Shown here: positions 1,778-29,060 of the stretch, piece by piece
Numbering within the stretch: the stretch's first letter is position 1
Layout: each line of letters begins with the position of its first letter
From: Nitrospirota bacterium
Lineage (GTDB): Bacteria; Nitrospirota; UBA9217
Assembly (NCBI GenBank): GCA_963754875.1
Contig: CAVWHO010000017.1
Span: forward strand, 144,949-208,948
Direction of reading: 5' to 3'
Length of the DNA stretch: 64,000 nucleotides
Made by a program: the position numbers and the translations under genes
The notes under the pieces: generated by a model
Told to the model about the DNA's origin: nothing
Databases searched by the model: none
Seen by the model: only the letters and a program-made list of their open reading frames with translations

Positions 1778-1814
1778 CCCGAAGGTCGTCTGTTCAAATC
1801 CGGCCCCCGTGCCA
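1778..1814 (+). other. tRNA 3'-end-like remnant (T-loop-like GTTCAAATCC ... CCA); not foldable into a full cloverleaf; possible att-site scar
   Basis: CCCGAAGGTCGTCTGTTCAAATCCGGCCCCCGTGCCA ends in CCA. A diverged copy occurs at 28693..28728. No matching 5' acceptor half upstream. Confidence 0.4.
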
Positions 1815-1825
1815 ATCAATACAAA

Positions 1826-1849
1826 GGGTTACAGCACATGCTGTAACCC
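1826..1849 (+). terminator. perfect 24-bp palindrome GGGTTACAGCACATGCTGTAACCC followed by TTTGCT; intrinsic-terminator-like hairpin or operator
   Basis: Perfect inverted repeat (11-bp arms, CATG centre). Identical core repeated at 28739..28764. Confidence 0.45.
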
Positions 1850-1923
1850 TTTGCTATCCCAGTGGGCCGGTAATGGGCCGGTCTCCTCAATGCTGTCCCC
1901 GCTACCTAAAATGGGAGATCGTC

Positions 1924-2220
1924 ATGAACCAAAAAGACAAGCCGATTGTCTCGATGACGAAGGAAGAACGAGAAGAATTTTGGGATGATGTTTATGTAAA
2001 AGAAGAGGGCATCAGCACTGAATTTAATTTGGACACTCATACAGGCAAAGTTCGTTCACTCCTGGACAATGCTAAGTATAAAATAGATGGTCGGGAACTC
2101 GTACGAACGAAAATTGAACTCCATGCCGGTGACAAAATTCTGTTTGCTCCGATAGCAGATCCCGACGGAGATGATTACGCCAGGATCATCGGCTTGAAGG
2201 GCACTTCGTGCGGCTGTTGA
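1924..2220 (+). CDS. small conserved hypothetical protein (98 aa), paralog of 28833..29060 product
   Basis: ATG 1924 preceded by GGGAGA. Shares YKIDGRELVRTKIELHAGDKILFAPI with YKIGDCEYIRTKIELHPGDEILFTPI of the downstream paralog. The tabulated start 1762 runs across the tRNA-like scar and palindrome and is rejected. Confidence 0.6.
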   Translation: MNQKDKPIVSMTKEEREEFWDDVYVKEEGISTEFNLDTHTGKVRSLLDNAKYKIDGRELVRTKIELHAGDKILFAPIADPDGDDYARIIGLKGTSCGC

Positions 2221-2381
2221 ACTGCGGCATATTATTTCCGGGAATCGAGGCGGGCCCTATTTCCGTTTGCAATTCTGGCCAAGCTTTGATAAAGTAATTG
2301 TGTGTTCAGGTGTCTGTTGGCTTAGGAAGTGTCTCATGCCAAAAACCATCGAGGCTATTTACTTGTAAGGAGGGGAGAGTC

Positions 2382-2663
2382 ATGACAAAACTTATTATTG
2401 AAACCGATGATGCCTGGGCTCGTGAAAAGATCAAATTTGCCATCGATACGGAAATTCACCTCCTAAAAAAAACAGTCGAAAAGATCGACCGTAAAATAAA
2501 AGACTTTGAGAAACAATATGGGCAGCTCGACCGAGAAAATCTCTACGGTAAAGTAGACGACATGATCCTTGTTGAATGGGAGGGAGAGGCAGAGGCAGAA
2601 TCTCTGCGGCGTGTTCAGGGCAGACTGAAATCGCTTGAGGAGATCAGCTTTGAGTATCGATAG
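2382..2663 (+). CDS. small coiled-coil hypothetical protein (93 aa)
   Basis: ATG 2382 with strong SD AAGGAGGGGAGAG. Product MTKLIIETDDAWAREKIKFAIDTEIHLLKKTVEKIDRKIKDFEKQYG...; overlaps next ORF by 29 nt. Confidence 0.55.
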   Translation: MTKLIIETDDAWAREKIKFAIDTEIHLLKKTVEKIDRKIKDFEKQYGQLDRENLYGKVDDMILVEWEGEAEAESLRRVQGRLKSLEEISFEYR

Positions 2664-3045
2664 TTATATTGCAGATTTCGAAACTGTCATTTCAACGCAT
2701 TCCTTCGTCTCTTCCTACTCGCTCACCATCGATAGAAAAACTCGTGATATTACTTTTCTCTCGGAAACCATAGAATTCAGGAATGGAACAGTACTTGATT
2801 TTAAGGAGTTTATCGAGAGTAAAGGCACGGCGATAGAAAAATATCTTTATGGATACAATCATCGTCTGGGCAGTACTCTCATTTTCCGCTACGACAATTC
2901 CCCGGATCCACGCGCACGCCAGATAAGAACATTCCCGCACCACAAGCATCTTCCGCCGGACAAGCTTGTCGATTCCGACAGACTGATTGACTTGCCTGCT
3001 GATCTGAAGGAGATTGAGGGCTTACATACTGAATCGGAAGAATAA
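2635..3045 (+). CDS. hypothetical protein (136 aa) with conserved-looking FRYDNSPDPRARQIRTFPHHKHLPPDK segment; possible partner of the upstream small gene (TA-like pair or one gene split by an indel)
   Basis: ORF with only a TTG start, overlapping the preceding gene. No family recognised with certainty. Confidence 0.45.
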   Translation: MRRSALSIDSYIADFETVISTHSFVSSYSLTIDRKTRDITFLSETIEFRNGTVLDFKEFIESKGTAIEKYLYGYNHRLGSTLIFRYDNSPDPRARQIRTFPHHKHLPPDKLVDSDRLIDLPADLKEIEGLHTESEE

Positions 3046-3047
3046 AA

Positions 3048-4121
3048 ATGAACCTGAACCAGGAAATGTTGTCAGTAATCCTGCCGCATGGAGCTATACG
3101 GCTGGAATGGGCAGAGGCCCAGGAAGAAGTCAGTAAGGACCAGGAACTTCTCCAGCGGGAAATATTTCGGCGATTTGCCGACCATCCCGATGGCGCATTT
3201 CTTTTTCTCGGATTCTCCAATAAATCAGTTCCCCTTTCTCCTTCCCTCGATTATTGGCGCAACGTATGCGGACTCTTCGCCAGGAAACTCGCTCACACTC
3301 CAAATCTGGAAATCCTTCGTCATAAGGCCATCGTCGAAATCAGCGAAGAAGAATTAAACCATGTCCTTGCATCAGCGCCGCTGATGACTGGCGCTGAGTA
3401 TTTGACCAGGGTCGTTATCGATGATCTTTGGCAGCGGCTTCATGACGAATTCAGCAAGGAGATCCAAAAGACAAAAGAGAGCGTCGAGGAGTTTATCCGG
3501 GCATACAGTCCCGATATCCATCTCATCGGCCGGGTGTTTTTCCACCTCGTGGAGAGCAAAAAAGATGATTACCCTTTTGCGTTTCTGGCTACGTATTCAC
3601 CGGGACTGAACAGACAGGGCAAATCGCAGCATCTTCCCCTGAGACAAGCCCTGCAGGAATACGACAGGGACGGGAAAAAGCTTCTTGACCTCCTCGTGAC
3701 GGTGCATCGAGCTGCCAAAGAAAGCGCCCTGGTGGCCCAGCTGCTTGAGAGCGGCGAACTGTTCCATCCGCTCGCCTGGACGGCTAAGGAAGCATACACC
3801 TTCCTCCGGGAGATTCCGATCTACGAACAAGCGGGAATATTGTGCCGCATTCCCGACTGGTGGAAGCGCGGCGCATCAAGTTTACAGGTCAATATATCCC
3901 TGGGAGGCCGCCAACCCTCAACGGTAGGCATGGATGCCCTGCTCAGTTTTGACATAGACCTGCATCTTGAGGGTGAGCAGATATCCTATGAAGAGGCCAA
4001 ACGGCTCATTGATGCGTCCGAAGGGCTTGCCTTGATCAAAAACCGTTGGATCGCCGTGGACCATGAAAAGCTGCGCCAGACCCTCGAAGCCTACGAAAAG
4101 CGCAAGCTCCCTCGCCAGTAG
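3048..4121 (+). CDS. SNF2-helicase-associated N-terminal domain (SNF2_assoc-like), probably the N-terminal portion of one ~900-aa YwqA-type SNF2 helicase separated from the ATPase part by a frame change
   Basis: 357-aa ORF ending TAG 4119-4121; the helicase motif-I region continues in the +1 frame from 4063. The combined length matches bacterial SNF2 proteins with a long N-terminal associated domain. Confidence 0.6.
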
Positions 4122-4494
4122 TGGAGGGTTGAGCTTTCGCGAGGCATTGCGGTTCGAACTGAATCCGAAGAGCTTTCTGGACCTTCCCGATAATGATTCA
4201 AGCGTGGTCATCACAAACGGACAATGGATGGAGTCGGTCATGGCGCGCATGCTCCACCCCGAAGCCATAGCGCCCGTACAGATGGAAACATCCTTCAAGG
4301 CGAAATTGCGGCCTTATCAGCAGAGAGGAGTAGCCTGGCTTTCGTTCCTCCATTCCCTCAGATTCGGCATGTGCCTTGCCGATGACATGGGACTCGGTAA
4401 GACCGTGCAGGTTTTGGCGATGCTGCGAGAGTTTGAAATCGAATGGCGAAAAAGGGGCCAGCCTGCTTGTGGTTCCTGCATCTTTGCTCTCTAA
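4063..4494 (+). CDS. SNF2-family helicase fragment carrying ATPase motif I ([12 protein letters not shown]...[18 protein letters not shown]); ends at frameshift in AAAAAGGGG run
   Basis: Translation contains the DEXDc/SNF2_N signature. Frame is lost near 4455-4470, where the downstream ORF continues ...[12 protein letters not shown]. Confidence 0.6.
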
Positions 4495-5743
4495 CTGGGC
4501 TGCTGAGATCGGGAAATTCACTCCTGAACTGTCATTCGCCATTGCTCATCCCTCCGGAAAGGATGAGACGGGCGAGATGCCGAAAGAAAGGAAAGAGATA
4601 GACAGGCTTGATCTCGTGATCACGACGTATTCGCTGGTGCAGAGATACGAATTGCTGCAAACATACGAGTGGAAGTATGTGATCCTCGATGAGGCTCAGG
4701 CTATCAAAAATCCCGGGACGAAGCAAACGAAAGCGGTAAAAAAACTAATAGCAATAAACAGGATCGTCATGACCGGGACCCCGGTCGAAAACCGGCTGTC
4801 TGACCTCTGGTCGATCTTTGATTTCATCAACCCCGGACTCCTCGGCAGCAGCCAGGAGTTCAGTCGATTTGCCAAGAACTTGAATAAGGACCCCGAAGGA
4901 TATGCACGTCTCAGGAAAGTCATCGGTCCCTATATCCTCCGGAGGCTAAAGACCGATAAATCTGTTATTTCCGACTTGCCGGAAAAGGTCGAGATGAAGA
5001 CCTGGTCGTACCTCGGGAAAAAACAGGCCGTCTTGTATCAGAAACTGGTCGACGACCTTCGCAGGTCCGTTGAAAATGTCGAGGGAATTCAGCGGAAAGG
5101 AATTATTCTGAGTTCACTTATGAAATTCAAGCAGATATGCAATCATCCGGACCAATACCTTGGGACTGGTTCCTTTGACGAAAAAGAAAGCGGCAAGTTC
5201 GGTCGACTGCGGGAAATCTGCGAGACCATCTATGAAAAGCGGGAACGGGTTCTCGTTTTCACCCAGTTCCGGGAGATGACTGAACCGCTCGCCGGCTTCT
5301 TGAGCACGTTGTTCGGTCATCAGGGCTTGGTATTGCACGGCGGTACGCCTGTAGGCAAGAGAAAGGAAATCGTGGCTCGTTTTCAGGACGAAGAATATGT
5401 TCCCTTCATGGTCCTGTCGCTAAAAGCCGGCGGTGTTGGACTCAATCTGACCGCCGCAAATCATGTCGTTCATTTCGACCGCTGGTGGAACCCGGCCGTC
5501 GAGAACCAGGCCACGGACCGGGCTTTCCGAATCGGCCAGAAGAAGAACGTGGTCGTGCACAAGTTTATTACTAAGGGTACGGTCGAGGAAAAGATAGACC
5601 AAATGATCGAGGGAAAGTTGAAACTGTCTAACGATGTGGTTCAGGCCGGCAGCGAGGCATGGATCACGGAAATGGACAATGACGAGCTGATGAGATATGT
5701 TTACGTTGACGCTGTGATGATAATGAGAAAGGGATTGCAATGA
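4376..5743 (+). CDS. SNF2-family helicase, SNF2_N remainder plus helicase C-terminal domain
   Basis: [43 protein letters not shown] and [44 protein letters not shown] motifs (SNF2 motifs II-VI). Confidence 0.85.
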
Positions 5744-6594
5744 GCTGGAGTTTTCCTCGATATGTGGCTAAAGCCGAGAAACAGGCACGGGCGGCAAAAA
5801 AACTTGAACAGCTGAAGAAAAAGCGGGACGTGAGGCCGGTTATTATTCAGGGCAGCGCTATTGCGCGCACCTGGTGGGGCAAATCCTGGAACCGAAACCT
5901 GGAGCAGTATGCGGACTACAGCAACCGTATTGGAAGGGGACGCAGTTATGTACGCCACGGCGCCGTTCTGGACCTTCAGATTAACGCCGGCGAGATCAAG
6001 GCGCTCGTGCAAGGTTCGAGGTCCAAGCCCTATGAGATACTTATTAAGATCGGGAAACTCGGCAAAAATACCTGGCAGCAGATATCGTCATCCTGTTCCG
6101 GGATGCTCGACTCCGTATCGGAACTTCTTTCGGGAAATTTTCCAAAAGAGCTCGGTGAATTGTTTCTGCAGCGCGATGCAGGCCTTTTCCCGTCGCCAAA
6201 GGAAATTGCCTTCGAGTGTTCCTGCCCTGACTGGGCGAGCATGTGCAAACATGTGGCGGCAACGCTGTATGGTGTCGGCGCGCGGCTCGATGAAGACGCC
6301 ACGCTCTTTTTCACGCTTCGCGGCGTTGATATGACCGATCTCATAACCCGGACCGCTTCAGCCAAGGCTGAGAGCATGCTCGAAAAGGCAGCGAAGAAAA
6401 GTTCTCGGATTATCGATGATACGGACCTGTCCGCGCTTTTTGGCATAGAGCTGACAAATATTGATAAACCGGCGACTATGGCTGTCGATGTAAGGCCTGT
6501 GAAAAAAACAGTGCGCGTGAAAGCTGCAAAAAGCATGGTGAAAGCAAAGAGGAATATCTCCGAAGAGAAAGAAAAGAAAGGCATCAGACAGTAA
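5740..6594 (+). CDS. SWIM zinc-finger protein (YwqB-like partner of SNF2 helicase)
   Basis: CSCPDWASMCKHVAATLYGV is a CxCxnCxH SWIM signature. Start overlaps helicase stop (ATGA). Confidence 0.8.
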   Translation: MSWSFPRYVAKAEKQARAAKKLEQLKKKRDVRPVIIQGSAIARTWWGKSWNRNLEQYADYSNRIGRGRSYVRHGAVLDLQINAGEIKALVQGSRSKPYEILIKIGKLGKNTWQQISSSCSGMLDSVSELLSGNFPKELGELFLQRDAGLFPSPKEIAFECSCPDWASMCKHVAATLYGVGARLDEDATLFFTLRGVDMTDLITRTASAKAESMLEKAAKKSSRIIDDTDLSALFGIELTNIDKPATMAVDVRPVKKTVRVKAAKSMVKAKRNISEEKEKKGIRQ

Positions 6595-6963
6595 AAAGAA
6601 ATCGATTTCGTCGACAAAATCAGTGAATAAAAAACATGTTGTGCAGAATGTGAAAAAAAGAAAGCGAGTTCGCTGATTAGATCAGAAAGCTAAAATGGTG
6701 TTAAATGGCTATGAGGCCGTCATCATGCTCTATAATATATCGATTAAAGGGAGTTTTTCCGATATCACAATATACCTCTAAGAAGGAATTTCATTCTCGT
6801 CTGGATACAGAGATATCCGAGAAGAATCTTTGTGAAGGTGCTGAAGAATCATCGAGGTGGATGTAATAATGGAGGCAAAACGGATAAGTGAGATAAAACC
6901 GTATTTGCCGTGACTTGTAGCCACATATTAGTATAATGTATATACATGCGGAAAGGAGGAGCT

Positions 6964-7161
6964 ATGCCAACTGCAACAAAAAAGACCGCAAAGCATTTTA
7001 GGCTGGATGAAACGCTGATTAAGAGTGCCCAGAAGATACTCGGTTCCAAGACTGAGACCGAAGCAATCGAAACAGCGCTCGCCGAGATTATCTACCAGGA
7101 GAAGATCAGGAAGTTTATTGAACAGACCGCCGGAAAGTTCAAGTTCGAGGGACTTAATTGA
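6964..7161 (+). CDS. vapB: type II antitoxin, VapB-like
   Basis: ATG 6964 after GGAGGAG. 65-aa product; stop overlaps the TTG start of the PIN toxin gene by 4 nt. Confidence 0.65.
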   Translation: MPTATKKTAKHFRLDETLIKSAQKILGSKTETEAIETALAEIIYQEKIRKFIEQTAGKFKFEGLN

Positions 7162-7556
7162 AATCGAAGGCTGTTCCTGATACTTCCTTCCTCATTGAGC
7201 ATTTCAGAAGGGGAACTGTTCAAAAAGCTTTTCTGAATCTCACGCGCTACTATCATGTCTCTTTCAGTTCTGTTGTGCTCATGGAGCTGCTCGCCGGTGC
7301 CTTCGATCCAAAGGAACAGAAGCTTATTGACCAGATAGCGCGAAATTTTACGGTCATATCAGTTACCGAGCGTGCATGGTTTGCTTGCGGCGAGATCATG
7401 ATGAAACTGCGAAGGGATAAAAAGATCGACAGGCAGAGGATAAAGGGGCTCCTGGCGGACATCCTGATCGCGGTATCGGTCCGGGACACAGGAGCGGTTC
7501 TCATCACGAAGAACGAAAAGGACTTCAAACTTATTCGCGGAGTGTACAATTTTTAA
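7158..7556 (+). CDS. vapC: type II toxin, PIN-domain ribonuclease VapC
   Basis: 132 aa, PIN-domain architecture (acidic residues in VPDTSFLIEH and ISVTERAW...DILIAVSVRDTGAVLITKNEKDF). Classic 4-nt overlap with upstream antitoxin. Confidence 0.8.
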   Translation: MKSKAVPDTSFLIEHFRRGTVQKAFLNLTRYYHVSFSSVVLMELLAGAFDPKEQKLIDQIARNFTVISVTERAWFACGEIMMKLRRDKKIDRQRIKGLLADILIAVSVRDTGAVLITKNEKDFKLIRGVYNF

Positions 7557-7746
7557 TATGTCGTGATTGATTGATATTGACAGTGTTTTTTCCTGTTCCG
7601 TTACTTTCCTGTTAAATAAAAGTACATTTTTGTGAGTTCTAAGCCCTTGATTTGCCGGGTCGGGGAAGGGGGGGGCCGCTTTGCGGTGGCACACCAGAAG
7701 GACATTATGATTCGCTGTACAGTACCCATTGTTAATAAGAAAACAC

Positions 7747-7773
7747 TTGACGTTTAACGCGCGGCGTTATACT
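7747..7773 (+). promoter_or_regulatory. candidate sigma70-type promoter of higBA (TTGACG -15 nt- TATACT), start codon 9 nt after -10 element, so possibly a leaderless or very short-leader transcript; partial palindrome TGATCGCGTGATCA overlaps the start
   Basis: Hexamers read directly from the sequence. Unverified. Confidence 0.3.
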
Positions 7774-7781
7774 ATGATCGC

Positions 7782-8063
7782 GTGATCAAGTCATTCAGGG
7801 ACGGCGAAGCCGAGAAGATATATTCTCGTGAACGGTCACAGAAATTGCCGTCCGATATTCAGCAGGTTGCCTTAAGAAAGTTGCGCATGATAAACAACGC
7901 GAAGAATTTCAACGACCTTCGCATTCCTCCAGCAAACAGGCCAGAAAAACTGTCCGGCAATCGGGCAGGGCAGTACAGCATTCGCATAAATGACCAATGG
8001 CGCGTTTGCTTCGCATGGAAAGACGGCGACGCGGCAGACGTTGAGATCACTGATTATCATTGA
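7782..8063 (+). CDS. higB: HigB-type toxin (RelE/ParE superfamily, plasmid maintenance system killer)
   Basis: GTG start. 93 aa with KLSGNRAGQYSIRINDQWRVCFAWKDGDAADVEITDYH, typical HigB C-terminus. Confidence 0.8.
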   Translation: MIKSFRDGEAEKIYSRERSQKLPSDIQQVALRKLRMINNAKNFNDLRIPPANRPEKLSGNRAGQYSIRINDQWRVCFAWKDGDAADVEITDYH

Positions 8064-8075
8064 GAGTAAATTAGA

Positions 8076-8381
8076 ATGAAGAAAAAAGCATTGCATCCTG
8101 TCCACCCCGGCGAGGTTCTTCTTGAGGAGTTTCTTAATCCCTTGGGTTTGAGCCAAAATAAGCTTGCTGTGAATATTGGCGTTCCAGCGCGAAGAATCAA
8201 CGAAATCGTTCTTGAAAAAAGAAAAGTTACCGCCGATACCGCGCTTAGGCTTGGGCGGTTTTTTAGTACGTCTTCAGAGTTCTGGCTTGGGCTTCAGTCG
8301 CAGTACGACCTTGATTTAGCCGCCGATGCTCTCGGAGACCGTCTCAAGAAGGAAGTTAAGGAATACTCAAAGGTAGCGTGA
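8076..8381 (+). CDS. higA: HigA-type antitoxin (XRE HTH)
   Basis: HPGEVLLEEFLNPLGLSQNKLAVNIGVPARRINEIVLEKRKVTADTALRLGRFFSTSSEFWLGLQSQYDL is a near-consensus HigA sequence; toxin-first gene order. Confidence 0.85.
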   Translation: MKKKALHPVHPGEVLLEEFLNPLGLSQNKLAVNIGVPARRINEIVLEKRKVTADTALRLGRFFSTSSEFWLGLQSQYDLDLAADALGDRLKKEVKEYSKVA

Positions 8382-9273: not shown

Positions 9274-10383
9274 GTGCTCGATCCAGTTAAAGTGGCCATG
9301 GGAGATCCGTATTTTTTCAGGGATGCACCCGTGTCCATCTGGGTGGAAGATTTTTCAGAGGTGAGGTCCCATTATCAGTCTTTAAGGAAGCAGGGCGTCC
9401 GGGATATGAGGACGTACTTTGCGCAACATCCCGAAGAAATCGTTTTGCTCGCAGGGAAAGTGAAAATCATTGATGTAAACAACGCCACACTTCGTCTCTA
9501 TCAGGCCCTCAGTAAAAAGGATTTTTTCAAGGGCTTGAAACAGATCTTCGGCAAGTCCTCTTATGAAACCTTCAAGGAAGGGCTTATCGCGCTGGCCGAA
9601 GGCAGAAGGGAGTTCGCGAGAGAGTGCGTGAACCTCACGATGAAAAAAGAGGGGCTCAACGTTTTTCTGCAATGGTTTGTTCCCGCCGATTACGAGAATA
9701 CCTGGTCCCGCGTCATTGTCTACGTCAGCGACATCACCGCTCTCAAGACAAGAGAGACCGAACTTCTGTACTCAGAGGAGAAGTATCGCAGGCTCTTTGA
9801 GTCCATCAATGAGGCCGTCTTCCTTGCCGACGTGGAGACCGGACTCGTTCTCGCGGTGAATAAGCGGGGCGGAGAGATTATCGGACTTCCATGCGACGAT
9901 ATCATCGGGATGCACTTTTCCCAGCTCCATCCTGCTGATCAAGCAGACTTCCACATGGCGATGTTTAAGAAACACGTTCAGGGGGACGTGACCATATCCG
10001 ATTGTGTTGAGGTCTATCGAGCAGACGGTGAAAGAATTCCAGTGTCGATAATCTCAAGTCCTCTGACAATAGGGGGGAAGAAATGCATTTCAGCTATATT
10101 CAGACAACAGCCTCAAAAAGATCTGACACCCGCCGCATCAGCAACGACCACTGCTTATACCGCGATGCTGTCGCCACGTGAATGTGAAATCGTAAGATCG
10201 ATTGCAGCAGGACTGAACAACCATCAGATGAGTAAAAAACATACTATCAGCGAGACAACGGTGAAGACCCACCGGACGAGGATCATGCAAAAACTGAAGC
10301 TGCATAAGACTGCAGAACTCGTACTGTTCGCAATAAAGTCAGGTCTGCTTGACGAAAAAATAATCCTCCAAAAAGTTCAGTGA
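9274..10383 (+). CDS. PAS-domain LuxR-family (GerE HTH) transcriptional regulator
   Basis: GTG 9274 after GAGGAG. PAS-like core (EEKYRRLFESINEAVFLADVETGLVLAVNKRGGEIIG) and C-terminal LSPRECEIVRSIAAGLNNHQMSKKHTISETTVKTHRTRIMQKL. Sits upstream of the EPS locus. Confidence 0.8.
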   Translation: MLDPVKVAMGDPYFFRDAPVSIWVEDFSEVRSHYQSLRKQGVRDMRTYFAQHPEEIVLLAGKVKIIDVNNATLRLYQALSKKDFFKGLKQIFGKSSYETFKEGLIALAEGRREFARECVNLTMKKEGLNVFLQWFVPADYENTWSRVIVYVSDITALKTRETELLYSEEKYRRLFESINEAVFLADVETGLVLAVNKRGGEIIGLPCDDIIGMHFSQLHPADQADFHMAMFKKHVQGDVTISDCVEVYRADGERIPVSIISSPLTIGGKKCISAIFRQQPQKDLTPAASATTTAYTAMLSPRECEIVRSIAAGLNNHQMSKKHTISETTVKTHRTRIMQKLKLHKTAELVLFAIKSGLLDEKIILQKVQ

Positions 10384-10791
10384 ACCCTGCCTCTCTTATA
10401 TCATGAAACATCACTTCAGCAGCCATCAAAGCACGCACGCCCTACACCTTTAACCCGACAAAATCGGGTATAAGGTCTACAGGTATTTACTCCAAAAGGT
10501 CGATTGACAATGATCTATTTCTTAGCTAGCTTTAAAAAACAGTTTTTTGGATAACTCTCTCAATTCGTAAAAACATAAAATATCAGAATGCAAGCATATC
10601 GTGCATTCTATCTCTTTTGATACGGGCTTCCCGCTTATTTGGCGGAACAGCTCATAGCGTGTTCGCTTATGCTCATGTAAGTGAGTAGGCGGAGCGATGC
10701 TTGGAACGTTTACGAATCGATTATATTTCAGTCAGGGCTGATGTTCTCGATTTTACGTGCTTCATTAAGATTTTTATCGTCTCGCAAAAAT

Positions 10792-11526: not shown

Positions 11527-11542
11527 TATATTGGATAAATTT

Positions 11543-18810: not shown

Positions 18811-18812
18811 TC

Positions 18813-20282: not shown

Positions 20283-20386
20283 GATAATGTATAAAATGAT
20301 TTTCCATATTAAATCTAGAGTAATAAAAGTCGCTAATGTGGCAATTGACAAGTGGATAAACTGTATACAATAAGAAGAGAAAATTA

Positions 20387-21343: not shown

Positions 21344-21438
21344 AGGATGAAGCTGGGCGGAGAATTATAAACCGGTCGCGTTATGCTTACTGGCAGAGAT
21401 TATGAAGGTGATTTCAAGTAAAAAAAAGAGCTGATGAT

Positions 21439-22551
21439 ATGCCAAAATTAAAGAAAAAACTCTGCTGGATAACACCTGATTATTTTTTGTGCGTTGATGC
21501 TTTAATTGTTCCAGAGCTATCTAATGACTATGAGATTGACTGGATTCTTATTAATACACGAAATACAGGAAGAAAATCAGATGGCCTAGTATTTAATACA
21601 TTTAAGCCCAAAGAATATAACCTAAAATATAGACAAAGGGACCCCCGCATAATAATACAATATCTGAGGTTACTAAACAACATCCGGGAATCAGATGCTG
21701 ACTTAATTTATATATCTTTTCACGGTCTGCCATATTTTTTCCCTCTTTTCTTTTTGTTAATAAACCCCAATCGGGTGATTTATGGTGCTCACAATGTTAG
21801 TACTCCAAAAGGGGCGAGTAATGAGTGCCTTATGCGAATATATAATAATTATGTACATAGCAGAATGAAAAAATTTCACGTATTTTCGAAGTCGCAGTTA
21901 ACCATTATTAGAAGACTGCTACCTGATAAAAAATCATATTATGCTCCCTTAGCTCTAGAAGATTATGGATCATCAGCTGTTATTCCACCTGATAATATAA
22001 TAAGGTTTTTATTTTTTGGGTACATTAGAAATTATAAAAGGCTAGATTTATTGATAAATGCTTTTCAGGATTTGTACAAATCCGGAATGCAAAATATTGA
22101 GCTCTATATTGCCGGCAATTGTGAAAATTGGGAATATTATCAATCAATGATTACTATCAGTGAAGGGATTAAAACAAGAATTGAAATTATACCCAATCAT
22201 GATATTCCAGATCTAATATCTTCTTGCCATTATATGGTATTGCCTTACCAGGATATAGCCCAAAGTGCGGTGCTTACATTAGCATATCAATACAATAAGC
22301 CAATAATCGCTTCCGATATTGATCCTTTCAGGGAGTTCATCGTAGATGGATTTACAGGATTCTTTTTTAAAAGACAATCACGGGAAAGTTTATCTTCTGT
22401 TATGAGAGAAGTAATTTTAAAGCATAATGCTAATTACGAAAACATGAGACAAAATATCATGGCTTTTGTAAAGAAAGAGTATTCAATGAGCCAAATAATA
22501 TCTATGTATAAAGCCTTTTTAGATGAATGTATTTCAAGGGAACAGCAATAA
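21439..22551 (+). CDS. glycosyltransferase family 4
   Basis: C-terminal GT4 signature region HYMVLPYQDIAQSAVLTLAYQYNKPIIASDIDPFREFIVDGFTGFFF. Confidence 0.7.
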   Translation: MPKLKKKLCWITPDYFLCVDALIVPELSNDYEIDWILINTRNTGRKSDGLVFNTFKPKEYNLKYRQRDPRIIIQYLRLLNNIRESDADLIYISFHGLPYFFPLFFLLINPNRVIYGAHNVSTPKGASNECLMRIYNNYVHSRMKKFHVFSKSQLTIIRRLLPDKKSYYAPLALEDYGSSAVIPPDNIIRFLFFGYIRNYKRLDLLINAFQDLYKSGMQNIELYIAGNCENWEYYQSMITISEGIKTRIEIIPNHDIPDLISSCHYMVLPYQDIAQSAVLTLAYQYNKPIIASDIDPFREFIVDGFTGFFFKRQSRESLSSVMREVILKHNANYENMRQNIMAFVKKEYSMSQIISMYKAFLDECISREQQ

Positions 22552-22568
22552 AAAAAAATGGGCTCTGT

Positions 22569-23726
22569 ATGAAAAAAATAGGAATATTAACTTATTTAAA
22601 TGAATATGCAAATCTTGGTACTAACATGCAAGCGTATTGCACGTTGGAGGCAATTAAAAAAGAATATCCTGATGCCCAAGTAGAACTAATAAATTATGTG
22701 GGATGGCGGCGGCCAATGAGGCCCTATCTAACGGATATTTCTTTTCATTCGTTTAAAAATGATATTATCAGAATTAAAAAATATAATATTTTTTTTAAAA
22801 ATGAAATTACAACGAGCCGAAACAAATTAATGTCTTCAAACCGTGACAACTCTATTGAGTTTATTAAGAAACAAAACTATGACGCAATATATGTTGGCTC
22901 TGATACGGTGTTGGAATTACAACAGGCCAACAAAGATAACTTGACTGCATACTGGTTAGACAATACGGTTGATAGTCATAAATTTCTTATAGCAGCTTCC
23001 TCTCATAATGTTTATTATGACGCCTTATCTGAAAATCAAAAGAATCTAATTCAGAAAACAATAGATGGATTTTCTTTATTAGGGGTTAGAGATGAGGCTA
23101 CCTTCCGATTGCTATCAAATTTTACGTCGCCAGGAGATAAAAGGTTGCAAATCGTACCAGATCCAACGTTTACCTATGAAATAGATTATAGTATTGCCGA
23201 GCAATATATTAAAAGGAAGAAATTAAATTTTAATAAACCTGTTGTCTGTTTGCATTTATTAAGAAATACAAAATGGGCGTGGGATTTATCGAATTATTTC
23301 AGAAAGTCGGGTTTTATTGTAGTATCGCTTCGTCCTGCTTATTATGCTGATATGATTTTTACAGATTTGTCGCCTTTTGAACAAATGGGAATATATAAAT
23401 ATTTTGACCTCGTCATAACTCATCGATTCCATGATTCCATTTTTTGTATAAAAAATTATACTCCTGTTATTTTCTTTACAGAGAATGTTACTGATGTAAC
23501 GCCAGATCAAGAATCGAAAGCCTTGACGCTATTTAAGTCGTTTAAATTAGACAAATCAAATTACATCGCAAACAAGGATATTTTGACAGCTAAATATTTA
23601 CTTGATATGCAGCAGAAGGCGATAATGAATTTTAAAAATAATGAGGATTTTATTAAATGTGAACTTAAGGTGCAAAAAAATAAATATGAAAACTTTGTAC
23701 AGGAATCTAGAAGAATGTGCATGTAA
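22569..23726 (+). CDS. polysaccharide pyruvyl transferase family protein
   Basis: N-terminus MKKIGILTYLNEYANLGTNMQAYCTL and later DLVITHRFHDSIF are typical of CsaB/WcaK-type pyruvyl transferases. Confidence 0.6.
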   Translation: MKKIGILTYLNEYANLGTNMQAYCTLEAIKKEYPDAQVELINYVGWRRPMRPYLTDISFHSFKNDIIRIKKYNIFFKNEITTSRNKLMSSNRDNSIEFIKKQNYDAIYVGSDTVLELQQANKDNLTAYWLDNTVDSHKFLIAASSHNVYYDALSENQKNLIQKTIDGFSLLGVRDEATFRLLSNFTSPGDKRLQIVPDPTFTYEIDYSIAEQYIKRKKLNFNKPVVCLHLLRNTKWAWDLSNYFRKSGFIVVSLRPAYYADMIFTDLSPFEQMGIYKYFDLVITHRFHDSIFCIKNYTPVIFFTENVTDVTPDQESKALTLFKSFKLDKSNYIANKDILTAKYLLDMQQKAIMNFKNNEDFIKCELKVQKNKYENFVQESRRMCM

Positions 23727-23733
23727 TGATTGC

Positions 23734-23859
23734 ACAACAATGAGATTACGCCCGAGCAAAATAGCTCGGATCGAATATCTACTGAACCGCCGACCAAGGA
23801 GCCTTGGTTACAAAACGCCATTGAAGGTCGCAGCCTCAAGTAATACACTTCGAGTTTGA
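23734..23859 (+). pseudogene. relic of an IS30-family transposase C-terminus (about 40 codons)
   Basis: ...KIARIEYLLNRRPRSLGYKTPLKV matches the characteristic IS30 C-terminal LNxRPRKxLGYKTPxEV tail. No upstream transposase body. Confidence 0.5.
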
Positions 23860-23899
23860 ATTCGCGACCTTACATTTTATCTGGTTATTCCCAAATTCT

Positions 23900-24994
23900 A
23901 TGAAAATTATTATAACCTCACCTTCACTTAAGAAAAATCACAATATAAGTGGCATTTCATCGGTCACACAATTTATTATCAAAAGAAATACGGGAAAGGA
24001 ATATATTCATTTTCAACTGGGCAAAAAAGACTTCGAAAGTCGTAATTTAGGCTGGTTTTTCCGAATTCTGAAAGCATATCTGAAATGGGGTTATTTGATG
24101 CTTACCCAAAAGGATATATTGATACATTTCAATCTCGCCTTTAGCATACTCTCCATATTTCGTGATTCTCCTTTGATTTTATTTGCCCGCTTGTTGCGCA
24201 AACCCATGATTATTCATTTACATGGTGGTGAATATCTCACAGAGAGCAAAATGCCATTATTGATAAAGTATATTTTAAAATGCAGTATGTCGGGCCAAAA
24301 CCCGAAAATTGTCCTAAGTTCTACGGAAAAGAAAATGATCAATCGAAATTTCAGTATTAGTAAAATATTTGTTCTCCCAAATTGCATCGAATTAGAGGAT
24401 GCAGGCAAGTTTCAACGTACTTATACGAAAAACGAGGTGCTCAGACTTCTATTCATGGGCCGTATTGTTGTAAGCAAGGGAATTGAATTAATTTTTCGGG
24501 CACTGGAATGCCTAAAACAGAAAGGCGTTAGATTAAAATTTGTTATAGCAGGCAAAGGCCCTGACGAAAAACTTTATGTCCGTAAATTTAGGGAGTTGTT
24601 AGGCGAGGATTTTGAACATAAGGGCGTTGTATCAGGTGACCAAAAGACAGAATTATTAAGAAATTGCCATGTATTTCTTTTGCCATCATTTTTTGAGGGA
24701 TTGCCAATGGCATTGATCGAGAGCATGTCTTTTGGCTTAGTCCCCGTAACCACGAATGTTGGTTCCATCAAGTATGTAATTAAACATGAGATAAACGGGA
24801 TATTTGTAAATAAGCATTCATCAGCAGAAATAGCATCTGCTATTGAAAAACTTTCTAAAGATAAAGAACATTTGCAAGAATTAAGCAGAAATGCACGACA
24901 ATATATCTTTAGCAACTACAATCCGGACGCCTATATTGCCAGACTAAATGAGATCTACGACGATGAATATAATCATAAATATTCATTCAGTTAA
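23900..24994 (+). CDS. glycosyltransferase family 4
   Basis: FLLPSFFEGLPMALIESMSFGLVPVTTNVGSIKYVIKHEINGIFV is a GT4 E-x7-E-type C-terminal motif. Confidence 0.75.
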   Translation: MKIIITSPSLKKNHNISGISSVTQFIIKRNTGKEYIHFQLGKKDFESRNLGWFFRILKAYLKWGYLMLTQKDILIHFNLAFSILSIFRDSPLILFARLLRKPMIIHLHGGEYLTESKMPLLIKYILKCSMSGQNPKIVLSSTEKKMINRNFSISKIFVLPNCIELEDAGKFQRTYTKNEVLRLLFMGRIVVSKGIELIFRALECLKQKGVRLKFVIAGKGPDEKLYVRKFRELLGEDFEHKGVVSGDQKTELLRNCHVFLLPSFFEGLPMALIESMSFGLVPVTTNVGSIKYVIKHEINGIFVNKHSSAEIASAIEKLSKDKEHLQELSRNARQYIFSNYNPDAYIARLNEIYDDEYNHKYSFS

Positions 24995-25901
24995 TAATAG
25001 TTTATGGTTTGAGACCATAATTTGTTTCTTAAAATCAAAGTATGCATTGATACCTGTAGAAACTTTGCATGAAATCTACCTGGGACGAATATATATAAAA
25101 AACTCATGTCATATTACTGTAGATGACGGCAATAAATCATTTTACGATGTAATTTTCCCCGTATTAAAAAAACATCATGTCCCGGCCTCTGTCTATGTAT
25201 CTCCCAAGATATGTAAAGAAAAAAGCAATTATTGGTTTCAGGAAATACAAGGATATGACCAAATTGAGTTAAAGCGGATCATTGCCGATATGTCGAATTG
25301 CTCATATAATTACCTTCTCAAGTATAGTGCAGAAGGGATATTGAAGACCTTTCCAGTTTACCAGATTCATGAAATAATAATGAGATACCGAAAAATAACT
25401 GATACTGAAAAAAAAGTATTTCAGAATCTGACGGTAAACAACCTTAAAGAGATCGATCAATCCGGTTTGGTGACAATTGGGTCGCACACTATCAACCACC
25501 CAATATTAACAAATGAAGATGATGCAAGCAGCAAATATGAAATAGTTGAATCTGTACGCGAATTATCAACCCTATTAAGCCGAGAAATAAAATATTTTGC
25601 ATATCCTAATGGCATACCTATCCTGGATTTTACAGAACGAGAGATGAATTATCTAAACAATATTGGTATTCAATTAGCTTTTACGACAGAGTCAAAAAAT
25701 ATCTCCTCCTTTGACAACCCAATGGGTATCCCCAGAATAGGAATATCGGATGGTGAAAGTTTGTCTTTTTTTAAAAGTAAATTATTTTTAGCTTCTTTTT
25801 GGAACACCTTTAAAAGGTTGAACCCGACAGGTGAATATAGAGAAAGAAAGGAATTACGCCGGTTTTTTCAGTCGGGAACACGCATGGATTATATTTCATG
25901 A
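24963..25901 (+). CDS. polysaccharide deacetylase (NodB homology domain)
   Basis: HITVDDGNKSFYDVIFPVL (motif 1 DD), GSHTINHPIL (motif 3). Confidence 0.7.
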   Translation: MNIIINIHSVNNSLWFETIICFLKSKYALIPVETLHEIYLGRIYIKNSCHITVDDGNKSFYDVIFPVLKKHHVPASVYVSPKICKEKSNYWFQEIQGYDQIELKRIIADMSNCSYNYLLKYSAEGILKTFPVYQIHEIIMRYRKITDTEKKVFQNLTVNNLKEIDQSGLVTIGSHTINHPILTNEDDASSKYEIVESVRELSTLLSREIKYFAYPNGIPILDFTEREMNYLNNIGIQLAFTTESKNISSFDNPMGIPRIGISDGESLSFFKSKLFLASFWNTFKRLNPTGEYRERKELRRFFQSGTRMDYIS

Positions 25902-26704
25902 ACGTCCAAAAACCTTTTCCATTACCTCATCGTACTATCCTTGGAATGCGGCTCGATGCGGCTAGCAATGCAGATGCAACTCGCATTATTTTAAAGTCGG
26001 CAAAGGAAAAAGTGCGCGGCTATGTTTGTGCAGCAAATGTGCACATGGTCATGGAATCGCACGATGAGGAGGCATTTCAAAGGATTGTGAACGGTGCCGT
26101 TTTAGTCATTCCGGACGGCATGCCTTTGGTTTGGGGTTTACGCTTTTTAGGGGTAAGAAAAGCTACTCACATTCGCGGCTACGATCTTACCGTGGATCTT
26201 CTCGAAGCGTCAGCACGAGAAGGCGTGACGGTCGGATTTTACGGCGGAAGCATCGAAGTTTTGAATAAGCTGCTGCAGGCTTCCCAAAAGAGATTCTCAC
26301 AACTTAAAGCAGTCTATTCATATAGCCCACCGTTCCGCCAGATGTCACATGAGGAAGATGAGCGTATAATTACGGAGATCAATGACTCAGGAGTGAACAT
26401 TCTCTTTGTCGGACTTGGATGTCCCAAGCAAGAGCGATGGATGGCAGAGCATGCTGGCCGTATCGACGCGATTATGATCGGCGTCGGTGCTGCGTTTGAT
26501 TTTTTAGGAGGCTCAAAGCCCCAAGCTCCTCGTTGGATGATGTCTGCAGGGCTTGAATGGTTATTTCGCTTGGTTATAGAGCCGCGAAGACTTTGGCGAA
26601 GATACTGTATTTATAATGCTCGATTTATAGTTTTATTTATTATGCAGTTGCTCAGCAATTACTACAGCATTGCCCGGCAAAAAATTTTTAAATGCATGGG
26701 CTGA
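25898..26704 (+). CDS. WecB/TagA/CpsF-family glycosyltransferase (GT26)
   Basis: VCAANVHMVMESHDEEAFQRIVNGAVLVIPDGMPLVWG ... LFVGLGCPKQERWMAEHAG matches the GT26 family pattern. Start overlaps previous stop. Confidence 0.8.
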   Translation: MNVQKPFPLPHRTILGMRLDAASNADATRIILKSAKEKVRGYVCAANVHMVMESHDEEAFQRIVNGAVLVIPDGMPLVWGLRFLGVRKATHIRGYDLTVDLLEASAREGVTVGFYGGSIEVLNKLLQASQKRFSQLKAVYSYSPPFRQMSHEEDERIITEINDSGVNILFVGLGCPKQERWMAEHAGRIDAIMIGVGAAFDFLGGSKPQAPRWMMSAGLEWLFRLVIEPRRLWRRYCIYNARFIVLFIMQLLSNYYSIARQKIFKCMG

Positions 26705-26921
26705 AAACCTCTTATTCTGGATAAGAAAGGAGACCAGACCCTATTCTAGCATCGACAAATCTTTTTTCACTCACACACATATGCCATTAGACGGGATCAA
26801 GCATACGCGCGATTACAACTGCTAAGGCAAGAGAGGGAAAAAGAAACACTGCTGTAATTAAAGAACCACAGAATCTTTTTCCATTTTAGTTTCCGGCATC
26901 TGAGCAGTATAGGTTTTATTT

Positions 26922-28034
26922 TCAATGAGCAACCAAATTACTTGGAATCAGAGGAGGAAAGCTAGTGTGTTTTTTGATAATGCTCCACTGCGCTTTATCC
27001 TGACGATTTACCTCTGGAATAAGACTCATGCCGTAATCCGTACCGCTCATGCTCGGCCACCATGAATTTGCCCCGGAAGGATCGGCATAGGCATAGTACC
27101 AATACGTTCCTGACACTCCATTTTGCTTCAAGACGTTAAGGAAATTGTCAAGTACAGTAAGCCATCGAGGATCGTTTTCTGGAATACCAAACTCTCCGAC
27201 AAATCCTTTTGCATTGCTCTGCTTTAGCCATTGTAAGAAGGGCTGAACTTTATCGACTCCCCAGTTGGGATACGCGCCTTGCTGGTCATACGTCTGTGTA
27301 TATGTGCCGCTCCCGTTGCCGTCAAAATACAAGTGGGCCTCATAGATGAGGTTGTTCGCCGGGTCAATAATTTTGAGGCCGCCATTGTCCCTAGGCCAAT
27401 AATAGGCGCTAGCCCATTGCGTGCCTTCCACGTAAATTGTTGTGTGCATATCGACTGAGCGGATGCCATTAACCGCCGCTTGTGCGGCTTGTGGCCACAC
27501 GCCTGTGCCGAGGTCGTGAGGTTCGTTCATGATATCGTAGCCAGCGAGACCAGCACTCCCCGATAGAGCTCCCGCCAGTTTGGTCCACAGATCTTGGAAA
27601 GCAGAAATGGGGAGAGAACTTGATCCGATAACCAGTCCGCCGGTACTGCTAACCGCAACGATGCCGTAATTAGCCACTGCGGTAGCCGCCCAATTAGGAT
27701 TGTAGCGCCCATAATTATGAATATCTACAATTACTTGCATTTTGCGGGTCGTTGCTAAGTCTAAAAATGATTTAAGCTTTCCAACTTCAGTTTGATTGAG
27801 CGGGCCATTGAGAGTAGACTGTAATTTTTCCCATGCGATGGGCAAACGGACGAGAACGATACCTTTATTTTTGAGATAATCAAGGTGGCTCGCAATCGGA
27901 TACGTTTCCCAAGAATATTCCGACCCAGATATGTTTATGCCGATCATTGCCCCGGTTGCCATACTTGGCGCAGCATAAGCCAGGATCATTAGTACGAAAA
28001 ATAATCTCTTTAGCATTTCATTTCTCTCCTTCAT
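26922..28034 (-). CDS. secreted glycoside hydrolase family 5 (cellulase-type)
   Basis: Signal peptide MLKRLFFVLMILAYAAPSMA; VIVDIHNYGRY and catalytic YDIMNEPHD (NEP acid/base) motifs. Confidence 0.8.
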   Translation of the reverse strand: MKERNEMLKRLFFVLMILAYAAPSMATGAMIGINISGSEYSWETYPIASHLDYLKNKGIVLVRLPIAWEKLQSTLNGPLNQTEVGKLKSFLDLATTRKMQVIVDIHNYGRYNPNWAATAVANYGIVAVSSTGGLVIGSSSLPISAFQDLWTKLAGALSGSAGLAGYDIMNEPHDLGTGVWPQAAQAAVNGIRSVDMHTTIYVEGTQWASAYYWPRDNGGLKIIDPANNLIYEAHLYFDGNGSGTYTQTYDQQGAYPNWGVDKVQPFLQWLKQSNAKGFVGEFGIPENDPRWLTVLDNFLNVLKQNGVSGTYWYYAYADPSGANSWWPSMSGTDYGMSLIPEVNRQDKAQWSIIKKHTSFPPLIPSNLVAH

Positions 28035-28108
28035 AATAGGTTACTCTTTGTAGATTGGGATTAATAATGACATTTCTACAATCTAATTTCAATTATGGAT
28101 AGAGAATG

Positions 28109-28438
28109 CTAATGCACTTTTTGAACTGTTCTGAGCGGGAATTGTAAACCACCTGAGCTCCCGTCATTGGCTGCAAGCCAGCGCTTTTTTTTAACCTCGT
28201 TTTCCAAGTGAGCTTTTTTGAGCGCTTGTTCCGACTGGCCGATTCGTTCTTCCAACCCAGCTTCTTTTGCGGAATCGGCTTCGAAGCTTTTTTTGATATA
28301 CTGCTTTCTCCAATGATACAGATGCCCGGAGGAAATGCTGTGTCTCCGGCAGAGCTGGGCTGCGGTGCTCACCCCGCTCAGATACTCTTCAACGACCTAG
28401 CCTTTGAATTCGGTGCTGAACTTCCTCTGTTTGCTCAT
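28109..28438 (-). pseudogene. IS3-family OrfA-like transposase relic with in-frame TAG; no OrfB
   Basis: Minus-strand reading MSKQRKFSTEFKG-stop(28399..28397)-VVEEYLSGVSTAAQLCRRHSISSGHLYHWRKQY... is an IS3 orfA HTH region; ends against the GH5 gene. Confidence 0.6.
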
Positions 28439-28692
28439 GACAAGATCCTTTCCGCCCCTCGGGGCCGAAGATCCTGTCCGACATTCTAACATAACTTGAC
28501 TTGTCTAAACAGAGGGGGTCAGTTCAGACGGCGGGAACCTTTCATCTATTAGAGAAGCATGGACGCAAAGCGACTATTGATATGAAATCGGCAAAACAAA
28601 CATTAGCTGAGAGAGATCTCGTAAGTCAAAGTAAAAAAGAAAAAGAGACAGCAACTTGTTTTGATCCCTAGCTCAAAAATCGGGTTTCACAA

Positions 28693-28728
28693 CCGAAGGT
28701 CACGTTTTCAAACCTTGTCACGCTACCA
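28693..28728 (+). other. second, more diverged copy of the tRNA-3'-end-like sequence
   Basis: ACCGAAGGTCACGTTTTCAAACCTTGTCACGCTACCA aligns with 1778..1814 at about 70 % identity. Confidence 0.35.
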
Positions 28729-28738
28729 AATCTATCAA

Positions 28739-28764
28739 GGGGTTACAGCACATGCTGTAACCCC
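28739..28764 (+). terminator. perfect 26-bp palindrome GGGGTTACAGCACATGCTGTAACCCC followed by GATTTATTTAT (terminator-like); same core as 1826..1849
   Basis: Exact repeat of the 22-nt core with both arms extended by one G:C pair. Confidence 0.45.
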
Positions 28765-28832
28765 GATTTATTTATCAGGACAGTCTCAGGACACTCTCGA
28801 AACATGAGATGTGACAGTGATAAAAGACGAGT

Positions 28833-29060
28833 TTGACAGCCTCAATGTCGAATGAAAAAAAGGAAAATTATGGGATGAAGTCTATACAAAGAGGATGGCA
28901 TTGTCATCGAATTCGATCCGATCACAATTCAAAAAAATTTCGCGTTCTTGCTGATAGCAATATCTATAAGATTGGGGATTGTGAATACATAAGAACCAAA
29001 ATCGAACTCCATCCCGGAGACGAAATTCTCTTCACTCCCATAGGCCCAATGGGTTCATAA
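28833..29060 (+). CDS. small conserved hypothetical protein, paralog of 1924..2220 product (start uncertain; ATG 28875 also possible)
   Basis: Shares the IRTKIELHPGDEILF block with gene 1924..2220. Same position relative to the palindrome. Confidence 0.5.
   Translation: MTASMSNEKKENYGMKSIQRGWHCHRIRSDHNSKKFRVLADSNIYKIGDCEYIRTKIELHPGDEILFTPIGPMGS

Follow-up and report, generated by a model that had tools for sequence, protein, structure and literature searches.

Two copies of a compact module, 26.9 kb apart and in direct orientation, lie in a 64-kb stretch of the genome of a Nitrospirota bacterium (contig CAVWHO010000017.1, positions 144,949 to 208,948; hereafter the window, with position 1 as its first nucleotide). 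It is probable that these modules are the tRNA-proximal junctions of tyrosine-integrase islands that have stacked up at the gene for the initiator tRNA, tRNA-fMet. The kind of system is a known one, that of tRNA-integrated islands in a tandem array with an integrase-binding arm of the lambda type; what is new is the family, which sits at the initiator tRNA of Nitrospirota. The two copies in the window are old, displaced and decaying junctions. Sequence comparison establishes the architecture of the module, its link to tRNA-fMet in relatives, the boundary at the anticodon loop and the tandem arrangement, and it points to integrases of the DUF3596 type as candidates for the acting enzyme.

The 24-mer GGGTTACAGCACATGCTGTAACCC occurs exactly twice in the 64 kb (1826-1849 and 28740-28763; 0 expected), and a MAFFT alignment brings 1773-2190 into register with 28688-29060, homology reaching ~400 bp past the hairpin in which the 24-mer lies. 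The two copies reported by an initial annotation of this DNA are thus real and correctly placed. Each module consists, in order, of a tRNA-fMet 3' half, the hairpin, two 11-bp tandem repeats, a second relic of a tRNA 3' end and an open reading frame (ORF) for a protein of ~96 residues; the repeat pair and the second relic (1887-1906 in copy 1) are additions to the parts first annotated. Between copies, identity is 27/42 in the tRNA part, 39/77 in the 75 nt after the hairpin and 155/237 in the ORF, with 24/24 in the hairpin. By our own arithmetic, such a perfect match has a probability of ~3e-5 at a background identity of ~65 %, the flanks ranging from 51 to 65 %.

The tRNA half of copy 1 (1773-1814, + strand) runs from the anticodon loop to the CCA end with three changes relative to the intact gene, as aligned with the intact genes of related loci L042, L057 and L079. 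It is 97 % identical over 37 nt to intact tRNA-fMet genes in Nitrospirota metagenome-assembled genomes (MAGs), the homology beginning at the anticodon loop (CATAACCCGAAGG). The half in copy 2 (28688-28728, + strand) is strongly decayed and has a T-stem like that of the GGTCACAGG...CCTGT tRNA variant. Both fragments are on the + strand and both begin at the anticodon loop, a recognised boundary of displaced fragments under the Islander definition. The stretch first described as resembling a tRNA T-arm and acceptor up to CCA can thus be named more exactly: it derives from initiator tRNA-fMet and spans that gene's 3' half, anticodon loop included. Rfam detects no tRNA in either copy, at the gathering threshold or at E<=10, and its single sub-threshold match is between the hairpin and the terminator part of the small RNA BjrC68.

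Related loci (L numbers) were retrieved through the small protein and are unbiased as to the hairpin. In a dozen of them, an intact tRNA-fMet is followed by the hairpin, two to four repeats, the second relic and the small gene (L087, L088, L089, L090, L095, L100, L101, L103, L108, L109, L113 and L124). The same order is found in L042, which came from a genome scan, and in L084, where the tandem repeats lie ~100 nt beyond the hairpin; in L124, the tRNA gene is preceded by a TTGACA-17-TATTAT promoter. At least a dozen other loci have the tRNA 3' half alone, with no intact gene. In most of these loci, the half starts at tRNA positions 28-38, in the anticodon stem-loop, and most of the 17 fragments classified share an anticodon-loop boundary. 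Islands in tRNA genes are known to leave a regenerated target gene and a displaced fragment as marks of their two ends, the largest class has an element attachment site (attP) centred on the anticodon, and tandem arrays occur (PMC4383910). The island model is supported because the displaced halves start at positions 28-38, matching the anticodon-centred attP class.

A single contig, Ga0181523_10000144, displays the tandem arrangement directly. An intact tRNA-fMet with a module bearing ACAGGACAG repeats stands at ~0.9 kb, and ~55 kb later comes a perfect 3' half (CTCATAACCC...CCA) with a module bearing GGCCCRTAACA repeats. The block that the two junctions share perfectly is the tRNA 3' half, and their hairpins are quite different. 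The interval encodes HD-CE, AAA_13, McrBC, NERD and ResIII proteins, a methylase and a tyrosine integrase with the arm-binding DUF3596 domain. In the 650 nt before the displaced half there are CTCTCC-type sites, CTGTCC three times, all inverted relative to the repeats at the left end (~0.16 expected per orientation); inverted sites of this kind are the pattern to be expected if they serve as the P-arm sites of an inserted island. With modules behind intact tRNA-fMet in relatives, halves cut at the anticodon loop and this array of ~55 kb, the initial suggestion of tandem island boundaries at a tRNA hotspot is supported.

Elsewhere among the relatives, the cargo behind the small gene comprises a type IIG restriction-modification enzyme with MNT/HEPN-like and Mks-like genes; in another case Dcm, NotI and Vsr genes with an integrase ~9 kb away on the opposite strand; and in a further one a WYL regulator with type I-C cas genes. 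Three related arrays contain DUF3596 integrases (P0041, P0046 and P0055, P numbers denoting proteins). DUF3596 (PF12167) is the arm-binding domain of the IntBPP-1 subgroup of integrases (PMC8138268). On a viral contig, a DUF3596 integrase lies 800 nt from a tRNA-Val gene that has a hairpin and three tandem repeats behind it. The integrase block itself has a recurrent make-up: a protein of ~329 residues with HD and OB-fold domains, a small ORF (65-84 residues), the integrase and one or two further small ORFs (L118 4748-8073, L119 8773-12065, L135 540-3264). At the contig end of L135 (1-110), four tandem AATTCCCCAYTTAGGRCCAAA-like repeats of ~22 bp lie beyond a helix-turn-helix gene next to this block.

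The proposed sequence of events begins with a tyrosine integrase, which would insert an island into the anticodon stem-loop of the tRNA-fMet gene. The island would bring its own tRNA 3' half and so restore the essential gene. Behind this half would follow an IHF-like site (for integration host factor) overlapping a strong terminator hairpin, then between two and four arm-type sites for the integrase, spaced 11 bp apart as in a lambda-type P' arm, and then the older relic of a tRNA 3' end, the small gene and a varying cargo in which defence and toxin-antitoxin genes predominate. Whenever the regenerated tRNA received another island, the earlier junction would be pushed downstream, leaving an array of tRNA, island, half, island and half. 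Applied to the window, copy 1 would start an island with toxin-antitoxin and helicase cargo, and copy 2 would start an older, almost erased island that borders the core genome. The intact tRNA-fMet should lie to the left of the window.

The hairpin is the most constant part of the two copies. In copy 1 (1823-1852, + strand) it reads AAAGGGTTACAGC-ACAT-GCTGTAACCCTTT, with a 13-bp stem, a dG of -23.8 kcal/mol and a z-score of -8.3; in copy 2 (28739-28764, + strand) it reads GGGGTTACAGC-ACAT-GCTGTAACCCC, with an 11-bp stem, a T-rich tail, a dG of -21.4 kcal/mol and a z-score of -7.2. At the base of the stem the copies differ by one compensatory pair (A-T versus G-C). The element had been called a perfect palindrome; it is instead a hairpin with an asymmetric ACAT loop, and its reverse strand differs by two bases. 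Pairing is kept across lineages: among 16 modules that were collected independently of the hairpin, paired cells make up 90.8 %, against 37-58 % in slid controls, with three compensatory pairs. Since both pairing and compensatory changes are found, the structure is under selection.

The T-rich tract described after the hairpin is acceptable in copy 2, where a G+C-rich stem with a T run is called terminator-like, but weak in copy 1, where the T-tail is degenerate and the terminator scan is negative. In L124, the hairpin behind the intact tRNA shares the ACAT loop of the window copies, and the scan calls it a terminator. The hairpin would thus be a tRNA terminator that the element carries with it, termination being a prediction from these calls. 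A perfect match (TATCAAGGGGTTA, 28733-28745, + strand) to the IHF consensus WATCAANNNNTTR (PMC7581858) overlaps the 5' arm of the copy 2 hairpin and is a predicted site. The strict consensus is matched in 11/27 modules and a relaxed one in 20/27 (~0.3 and ~0.7 expected), the modules being related by descent; the position relative to the hairpin was read from match coordinates and matched strings. The match is kept in lineages in which the hairpin sequence has changed, and IHF may bind at this hairpin-overlapping site. A terminator and a protein-binding site were the two roles initially offered for the hairpin; both are reasonable and both may hold, given the terminator call in intact relatives and the overlapping consensus.

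The stem has a wide distribution of its own. A scan for GGTTACAGC-N4-GCTGTAACC in a genome collection with one genome per species finds it in 82 DNA stretches from several phyla, including Nitrospirota, delta-proteobacterial lineages (relatives of Desulfovibrio, Geobacter and Desulfuromonas and similar MAGs), Cupriavidus and others; the loci are L001-L082 from the genome scan and the viral locus L121. Of 83 occurrences, 53 place the stem ~12 nt downstream of tRNA sequence, which is an intact gene in 36 cases and a displaced fragment in 17. The intact tRNAs are of 13 kinds and the displaced halves of five (tRNA-Glu, -Phe, -Val, -Thr and -fMet); a predicted provirus with a tRNA-Val half and the stem is one further case. 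A first reading of the stem as an ordinary host terminator was dropped since 17 of the 53 tRNA-adjacent occurrences follow displaced halves of these five kinds. The stem appears rather to travel with elements that target anticodon loops, as a built-in tRNA terminator, if its genomic positions are a guide. The overlapping IHF-like site explains the constancy of the stem sequence only in part. Genes downstream of tRNA-adjacent stems are not conserved, with no integrase among the 25 most-matched Pfam families, and a full-text literature search for the stem sequence returned primers only. In viral contigs the stem pattern was found twice and three control patterns 0, 0 and 1 times, counts too low for comparison.

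Behind the hairpin, copy 1 has two TGGGCCGGT repeats, a 9-mer in an 11-bp register (1863-1882, + strand), and copy 2 has two CAGGACA repeats, a 7-mer of a different type at 11-bp spacing (28776-28793, + strand). Both copies and every relative inspected show the pattern of two to four repeats in an 11-bp phase. The sequences fall into at least four types, with other motifs at the same place in other modules: TGGGCCGGT is found three times in L053 and in L089, and the CAGGACA type recurs in L042, L087, L088, L090 and L100. Repeat type does not co-vary with similarity of the small protein, as P0002 (87 % to the window protein) goes with TGAGACGG repeats and P0005 (81 %) with TGGGCCGG repeats. Because of this independence, sites for the arm-binding domains of co-evolving integrases are favoured over sites for the small protein, and the repeats are predicted to be arm-type integrase sites of a P' arm.

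Two further repeat observations were made around copy 1. The CTTCACATAA repeats at 1530-1615 were considered as P-arm sites and dropped, as they lie within homology to a group II intron. Within 1790-1930, GGGCCGG repeats are complementary to CCGGCCC at the junction of tRNA T-stem and acceptor, the leader fold having a z-score of -5.0; such complementarity between repeat and T-stem is not general, as the remaining repeat types do not share it.

The second relic of copy 1 (1887-1906, + strand) is degenerate, immediately precedes the small gene's ribosome-binding site and corresponds to tRNA-fMet from the T-loop to the acceptor strand. In local alignments with the tRNA 3' half, none of 300 shuffles reaches the score of this segment, and p<=0.02 is obtained in 14 of 24 loci. 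In L107 (1-60), a whole tRNA-fMet 3' half occupies the place of the relic and abuts the small gene. The relic is read as the trace of an earlier event, carried along with the module since then; comparison with L107 suggests that the small gene may once have stood immediately behind a tRNA.

The initial annotation gave a small ORF to each copy, which is right for copy 1, where it is intact (98 residues, 1924-2220, + strand) and belongs to a family of ~96-residue proteins, but not for copy 2 (28826-29060, start approximate, + strand), which is a pseudogene because two frame changes and a stop codon interrupt it. Almost all of the 40 homologues are of ~96 residues, and none is named. The gene adjoins tRNA-fMet or its 3' half in most loci with upstream sequence, the exceptions being L093, with no tRNA part, and L091, with unrelated upstream sequence. 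Searches of Pfam, PHROGs, NCBIfam, PADLOC and the PDB sequences yield no match to the protein. In particular, no cold-shock profile is matched in Pfam or NCBIfam at thresholds of 0.01 and 0.1 (the sole NCBIfam row is a sub-threshold LrpA), nor any PDB sequence at E<=10.

An AlphaFold model built from 28 sequences (pLDDT 72) has an N-terminal helix followed by a five-strand barrel. Its best Foldseek matches are the cold-shock domains of YB-1 and CspA, IF1 and a phage CspC (E 1e-3 to 2e-4), with TM-scores of 0.5-0.6 on the query and 0.75-0.79 on the target. As modelled, the protein is a divergent cold-shock-like fold. The aromatic RNP1 and RNP2 motifs of cold-shock proteins such as CspA are not visible in the alignment of the family. 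The protein could serve as a directionality factor, or as an antiterminator at the hairpin next to its gene. A broader proposal would make the hairpin with its IHF-like site a functional part of the attachment site in a large group of anticodon-loop islands, spread over several phyla and at least five tRNA kinds, and the small gene a new accessory factor, either a directionality factor or an antiterminator by which the island could draw on the strong tRNA promoter through the hairpin; we put this forward tentatively, as an unlikely extension.

In a distinctly unlikely alternative, the module is a regulatory leader. The hairpin would gate read-through from the tRNA-fMet promoter, and the small protein would bind the leader RNA, at the hairpin or at the 7- to 9-mers, and thereby melt the terminator or control its own translation; such a function could coexist with the island model. 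The small gene is always directly behind the terminator, no sigma-70-like promoter was found in the interval between hairpin and ORF of copy 1, and the fold is nearest to CspA, YB-1 and IF1, which bind single strands. CspA-family proteins are known antiterminators. Yet repeats that the small protein recognised would be expected to follow its sequence, and the contrast of P0002 and P0005 speaks against this; the modules of the L084 type have, in our own reading, a putative promoter (TTGATA-17-TATAGT) between repeats and gene; the RNP1/RNP2 aromatics of cold-shock proteins are missing; and the layout of hairpin and repeats also occurs behind other tRNAs without the small gene.

The modules would owe nothing to site-specific integration if a unit of tRNA, terminator and small gene had been duplicated locally long ago and its tRNAs had since decayed, an alternative already raised in the initial annotation. 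All parts are common to both copies in the same order and orientation, and there is no integrase in the window, as a local duplication would have it. The small protein of copy 1, though, is nearest to P0001-P0006 (81-89 %), which come from other samples, and the peptide reconstructed from copy 2 has 52-57 % identity with members of the P0017-P0030 subfamily, against 49 % with copy 1. The copies also differ in repeat motif (TGGGCCGGT against CAGGACA) and in the type of tRNA T-stem. These comparisons set the window copies apart: they are not each other's closest relatives and have separate ancestry. Local duplication is argued against because each copy has closer relatives elsewhere and because of these differing types. 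Both copies, moreover, are without the tRNA 5' half, the same anticodon-loop boundary recurs in a dozen or more unrelated loci, and the cargo behind copy 1 recurs beside another displaced half (in L055). We regard the duplication as improbable.

Another proposal is that the hairpin itself is the recombination core, the 27 kb being one island between attL and attR of 24-26 bp with the crossover in the hairpin, and the flanks being alike since attP resembled the chromosomal site attB. Perfect identity is indeed confined to the hairpin, against 51-65 % in the flanks, and the two inverted arms of 9-10 bp, with a short spacer between them, look like the core site of a recombinase. The overlap regions of tyrosine recombinases are 6-8 bp, and the hairpin spacer, at 4 nt, is shorter. 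In Ga0181523_10000144 it is the tRNA 3' half that is shared perfectly, with hairpins that differ; in at least a dozen loci it is with the anticodon loop that displaced fragments begin; and 13 kinds of intact tRNA have this stem behind them. A crossover in the hairpin is accordingly very improbable. That a generic REP-like (repetitive extragenic palindromic) or MITE-like (miniature inverted-repeat transposable element) palindrome fell in both places by chance is barely credible: the stem is known from 82 DNA stretches in several phyla, but the 64 kb contain just two copies, the position ~12 nt behind a tRNA gene or displaced half accounts for 53 of the 83 occurrences, and the window homology extends ~400 bp beyond the hairpin. 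The scattering over unrelated loci that the initial annotation named as fatal to its proposal is not what is seen, as the stem is tied to tRNA 3' ends and the small gene mostly to tRNA-fMet.

Several observations weigh against stacked islands at tRNA-fMet. Neither ARAGORN nor Rfam detects a tRNA in the 64 kb, hence no intact target gene there, and neither Pfam searches of the tested ORFs nor tblastn with the array integrases finds an integrase gene or relic in it; for these reasons the array is incomplete in the window. The right end of the copy 1 island is unrecognisable, since the sequence ahead of copy 2 offers a single CTGTCC and no clear CCGGCCC. The IHF consensus is not present in copy 1. 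Copy 2 has kept its hairpin perfect while its tRNA half has decayed and its gene has died, which a role as tRNA terminator alone does not account for; its intactness suggests a remaining role, for example as insulation between islands, or else gene conversion. Among the related arrays, no attachment-site fragment was found beyond the integrases, with no tRNA fragment within 6 kb in L084 and L118, and no island was seen with both ends and an integrase beside its attachment site. The link between DUF3596 integrases and the attachment site is for that last reason circumstantial, and among the arrays inspected none of these integrases directly adjoins a tRNA-fMet junction.

To the left of copy 1, the window opens in the 3' part of a group II intron (1-1611, + strand), whose maturase domain is encoded by an ORF at 560-1150 (Pfam GIIM, E 1.4e-22). 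The intron ends ~160 nt before copy 1, and it is inserted in the end of the preceding element. Its segment 1222-1611 has counterparts next to other modules in L111 (86 % identity) and L089 (76-78 %), which hints that the intron may have a target preference for the neighbourhood of modules. Intron-related sequence lies at L089 792-991 and 3817-3978 and at L111 1406-1794. Between intron and tRNA half, and abutting the latter, is a conserved non-coding stretch (1640-1772, + strand) with 76 % identity over 138 nt to L083 9707-9844, which adjoins a displaced tRNA-fMet half in another Nitrospirota MAG. This stretch may represent the right end, on the P-arm side, of the preceding element of the array.

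The island cargo behind copy 1 (2382-8381, + strand) consists of a TumE-type toxin pair, an SNF2 helicase (ZorD/DpdE-like) as two ORFs, a 284-residue protein without assignment, VapBC and HigBA. The helicase ORFs (3048-4121 and 4376-5743) correspond to a single 888-residue ORF in L055 (408-3074), a comparison by which the helicase is probably inactivated in this genome. Window positions 2641-6454 are 79 % identical to L055 1-3814, from a Nitrospirota MAG, and this block lies ~2 kb upstream of another displaced tRNA-fMet half; the window VapBC is 82 % identical to a pair that adjoins the L083 junction. Further along (9274-28034) come a LuxR-PAS regulator, an exopolysaccharide (EPS) locus with Wza-, Wzz- and BY-kinase-like proteins, sugar transferases, a deacetylase and WecG, relics of IS3 insertion sequences (IS) and a GH5 glycosidase.

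The EPS part has a G+C content of 0.32-0.40 at 18-26 kb and is missing from the L055 counterpart. Because that counterpart shares the 2641-6454 block without the EPS part, the bracketed 27 kb is composite. The LuxR-EPS block is low-GC secondary cargo, which the copy 1 island would later have gained or retained, along with IS elements. The 27 kb, initially read as acquired cargo, does hold island cargo and IS3 relics, but it is composite and not one clean island, with no integrase left. An IS3-family transposase fragment (28109-28372, - strand; Pfam HTH_Tnp_1) occupies the expected right end of the island, where integrase and P arm would lie. Genes or fragments of IS3-family and other DDE transposases at 14064-15264 (- strand), 28109-28372 (- strand) and 31123-32282 (+ strand) interrupt the EPS locus and flank copy 2.

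To the left of ~32 kb the G+C content is mostly 0.32-0.48 (one 2-kb bin at 0.52), and to the right mostly 0.49-0.62 (one bin at 0.43). From ~32.8 kb rightwards the genes are those of a cytochrome, GlmS, a hybrid-cluster protein and transporters, and these ordinary housekeeping genes of higher G+C content, to the right of copy 2, are read as core genome. A possible third relic lies at 39514-39548, in an AT-rich gap after glmS and on the same + strand as copies 1 and 2: AAATCCGGCCCCGCTACCA, like a tRNA-fMet 3' end, followed by CTCATAACTCGA, like an anticodon loop (blastn-short 19/20). This uncertain match could be a third, older scar or could be due to chance (E 0.2).

Accretion at the initiator-tRNA gene would explain ~30 kb of toxin-antitoxin, helicase and EPS genes in the window. 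In related genomes, tRNA-fMet is a major point of entry for restriction-modification, McrBC, CRISPR-Cas and Mks-like defence systems. The combination of tRNA-fMet 3' half, hairpin, phased repeats and small gene is a signature by which such arrays can be found in metagenome assemblies. It also raises the questions of why one terminator stem should occur across different tRNA targets and phyla, and what role the conserved first gene has.

Among known systems, the tDNA islands catalogued by Islander are the nearest in plan. They share the split and restored tRNA, the displaced 3' fragment in the same orientation at the far end, the crossover in the anticodon loop, the arrays and the variable, often defensive cargo. 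The modules differ in targeting the initiator tRNA of uncultivated Nitrospirota, in being present in the window as displaced junctions only, without intact tRNA or integrase, and in that every island of the family begins with the same small gene and a second relic of a tRNA 3' end. In the P' arm of lambda, the order is core, the H' site for IHF and the arm-type Int sites P'1-P'3. In sequence pattern, the modules follow this order with a core (the tRNA half), a WATCAANNNNTTR-like site and two to four direct repeats about one helical turn apart, and the integrases of related arrays carry an arm-binding N-terminal domain; unlike in lambda attP, the distance from core to arm is longer (~95 bp) and a terminator hairpin is built in, overlapping the predicted IHF-like site. 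Integrases of the IntBPP-1 subgroup are present in three related arrays, with one beside tRNA-Val, a hairpin and repeats on the viral contig, and none in the window. For the small protein, the five-strand barrel of the model can be superposed on CspA, the YB-1 cold-shock domain and IF1, whereas an extra N-terminal helix and the lack of a profile match and of the RNP1/RNP2 aromatics set it apart from cold-shock proteins, the model being of moderate confidence (pLDDT 72).

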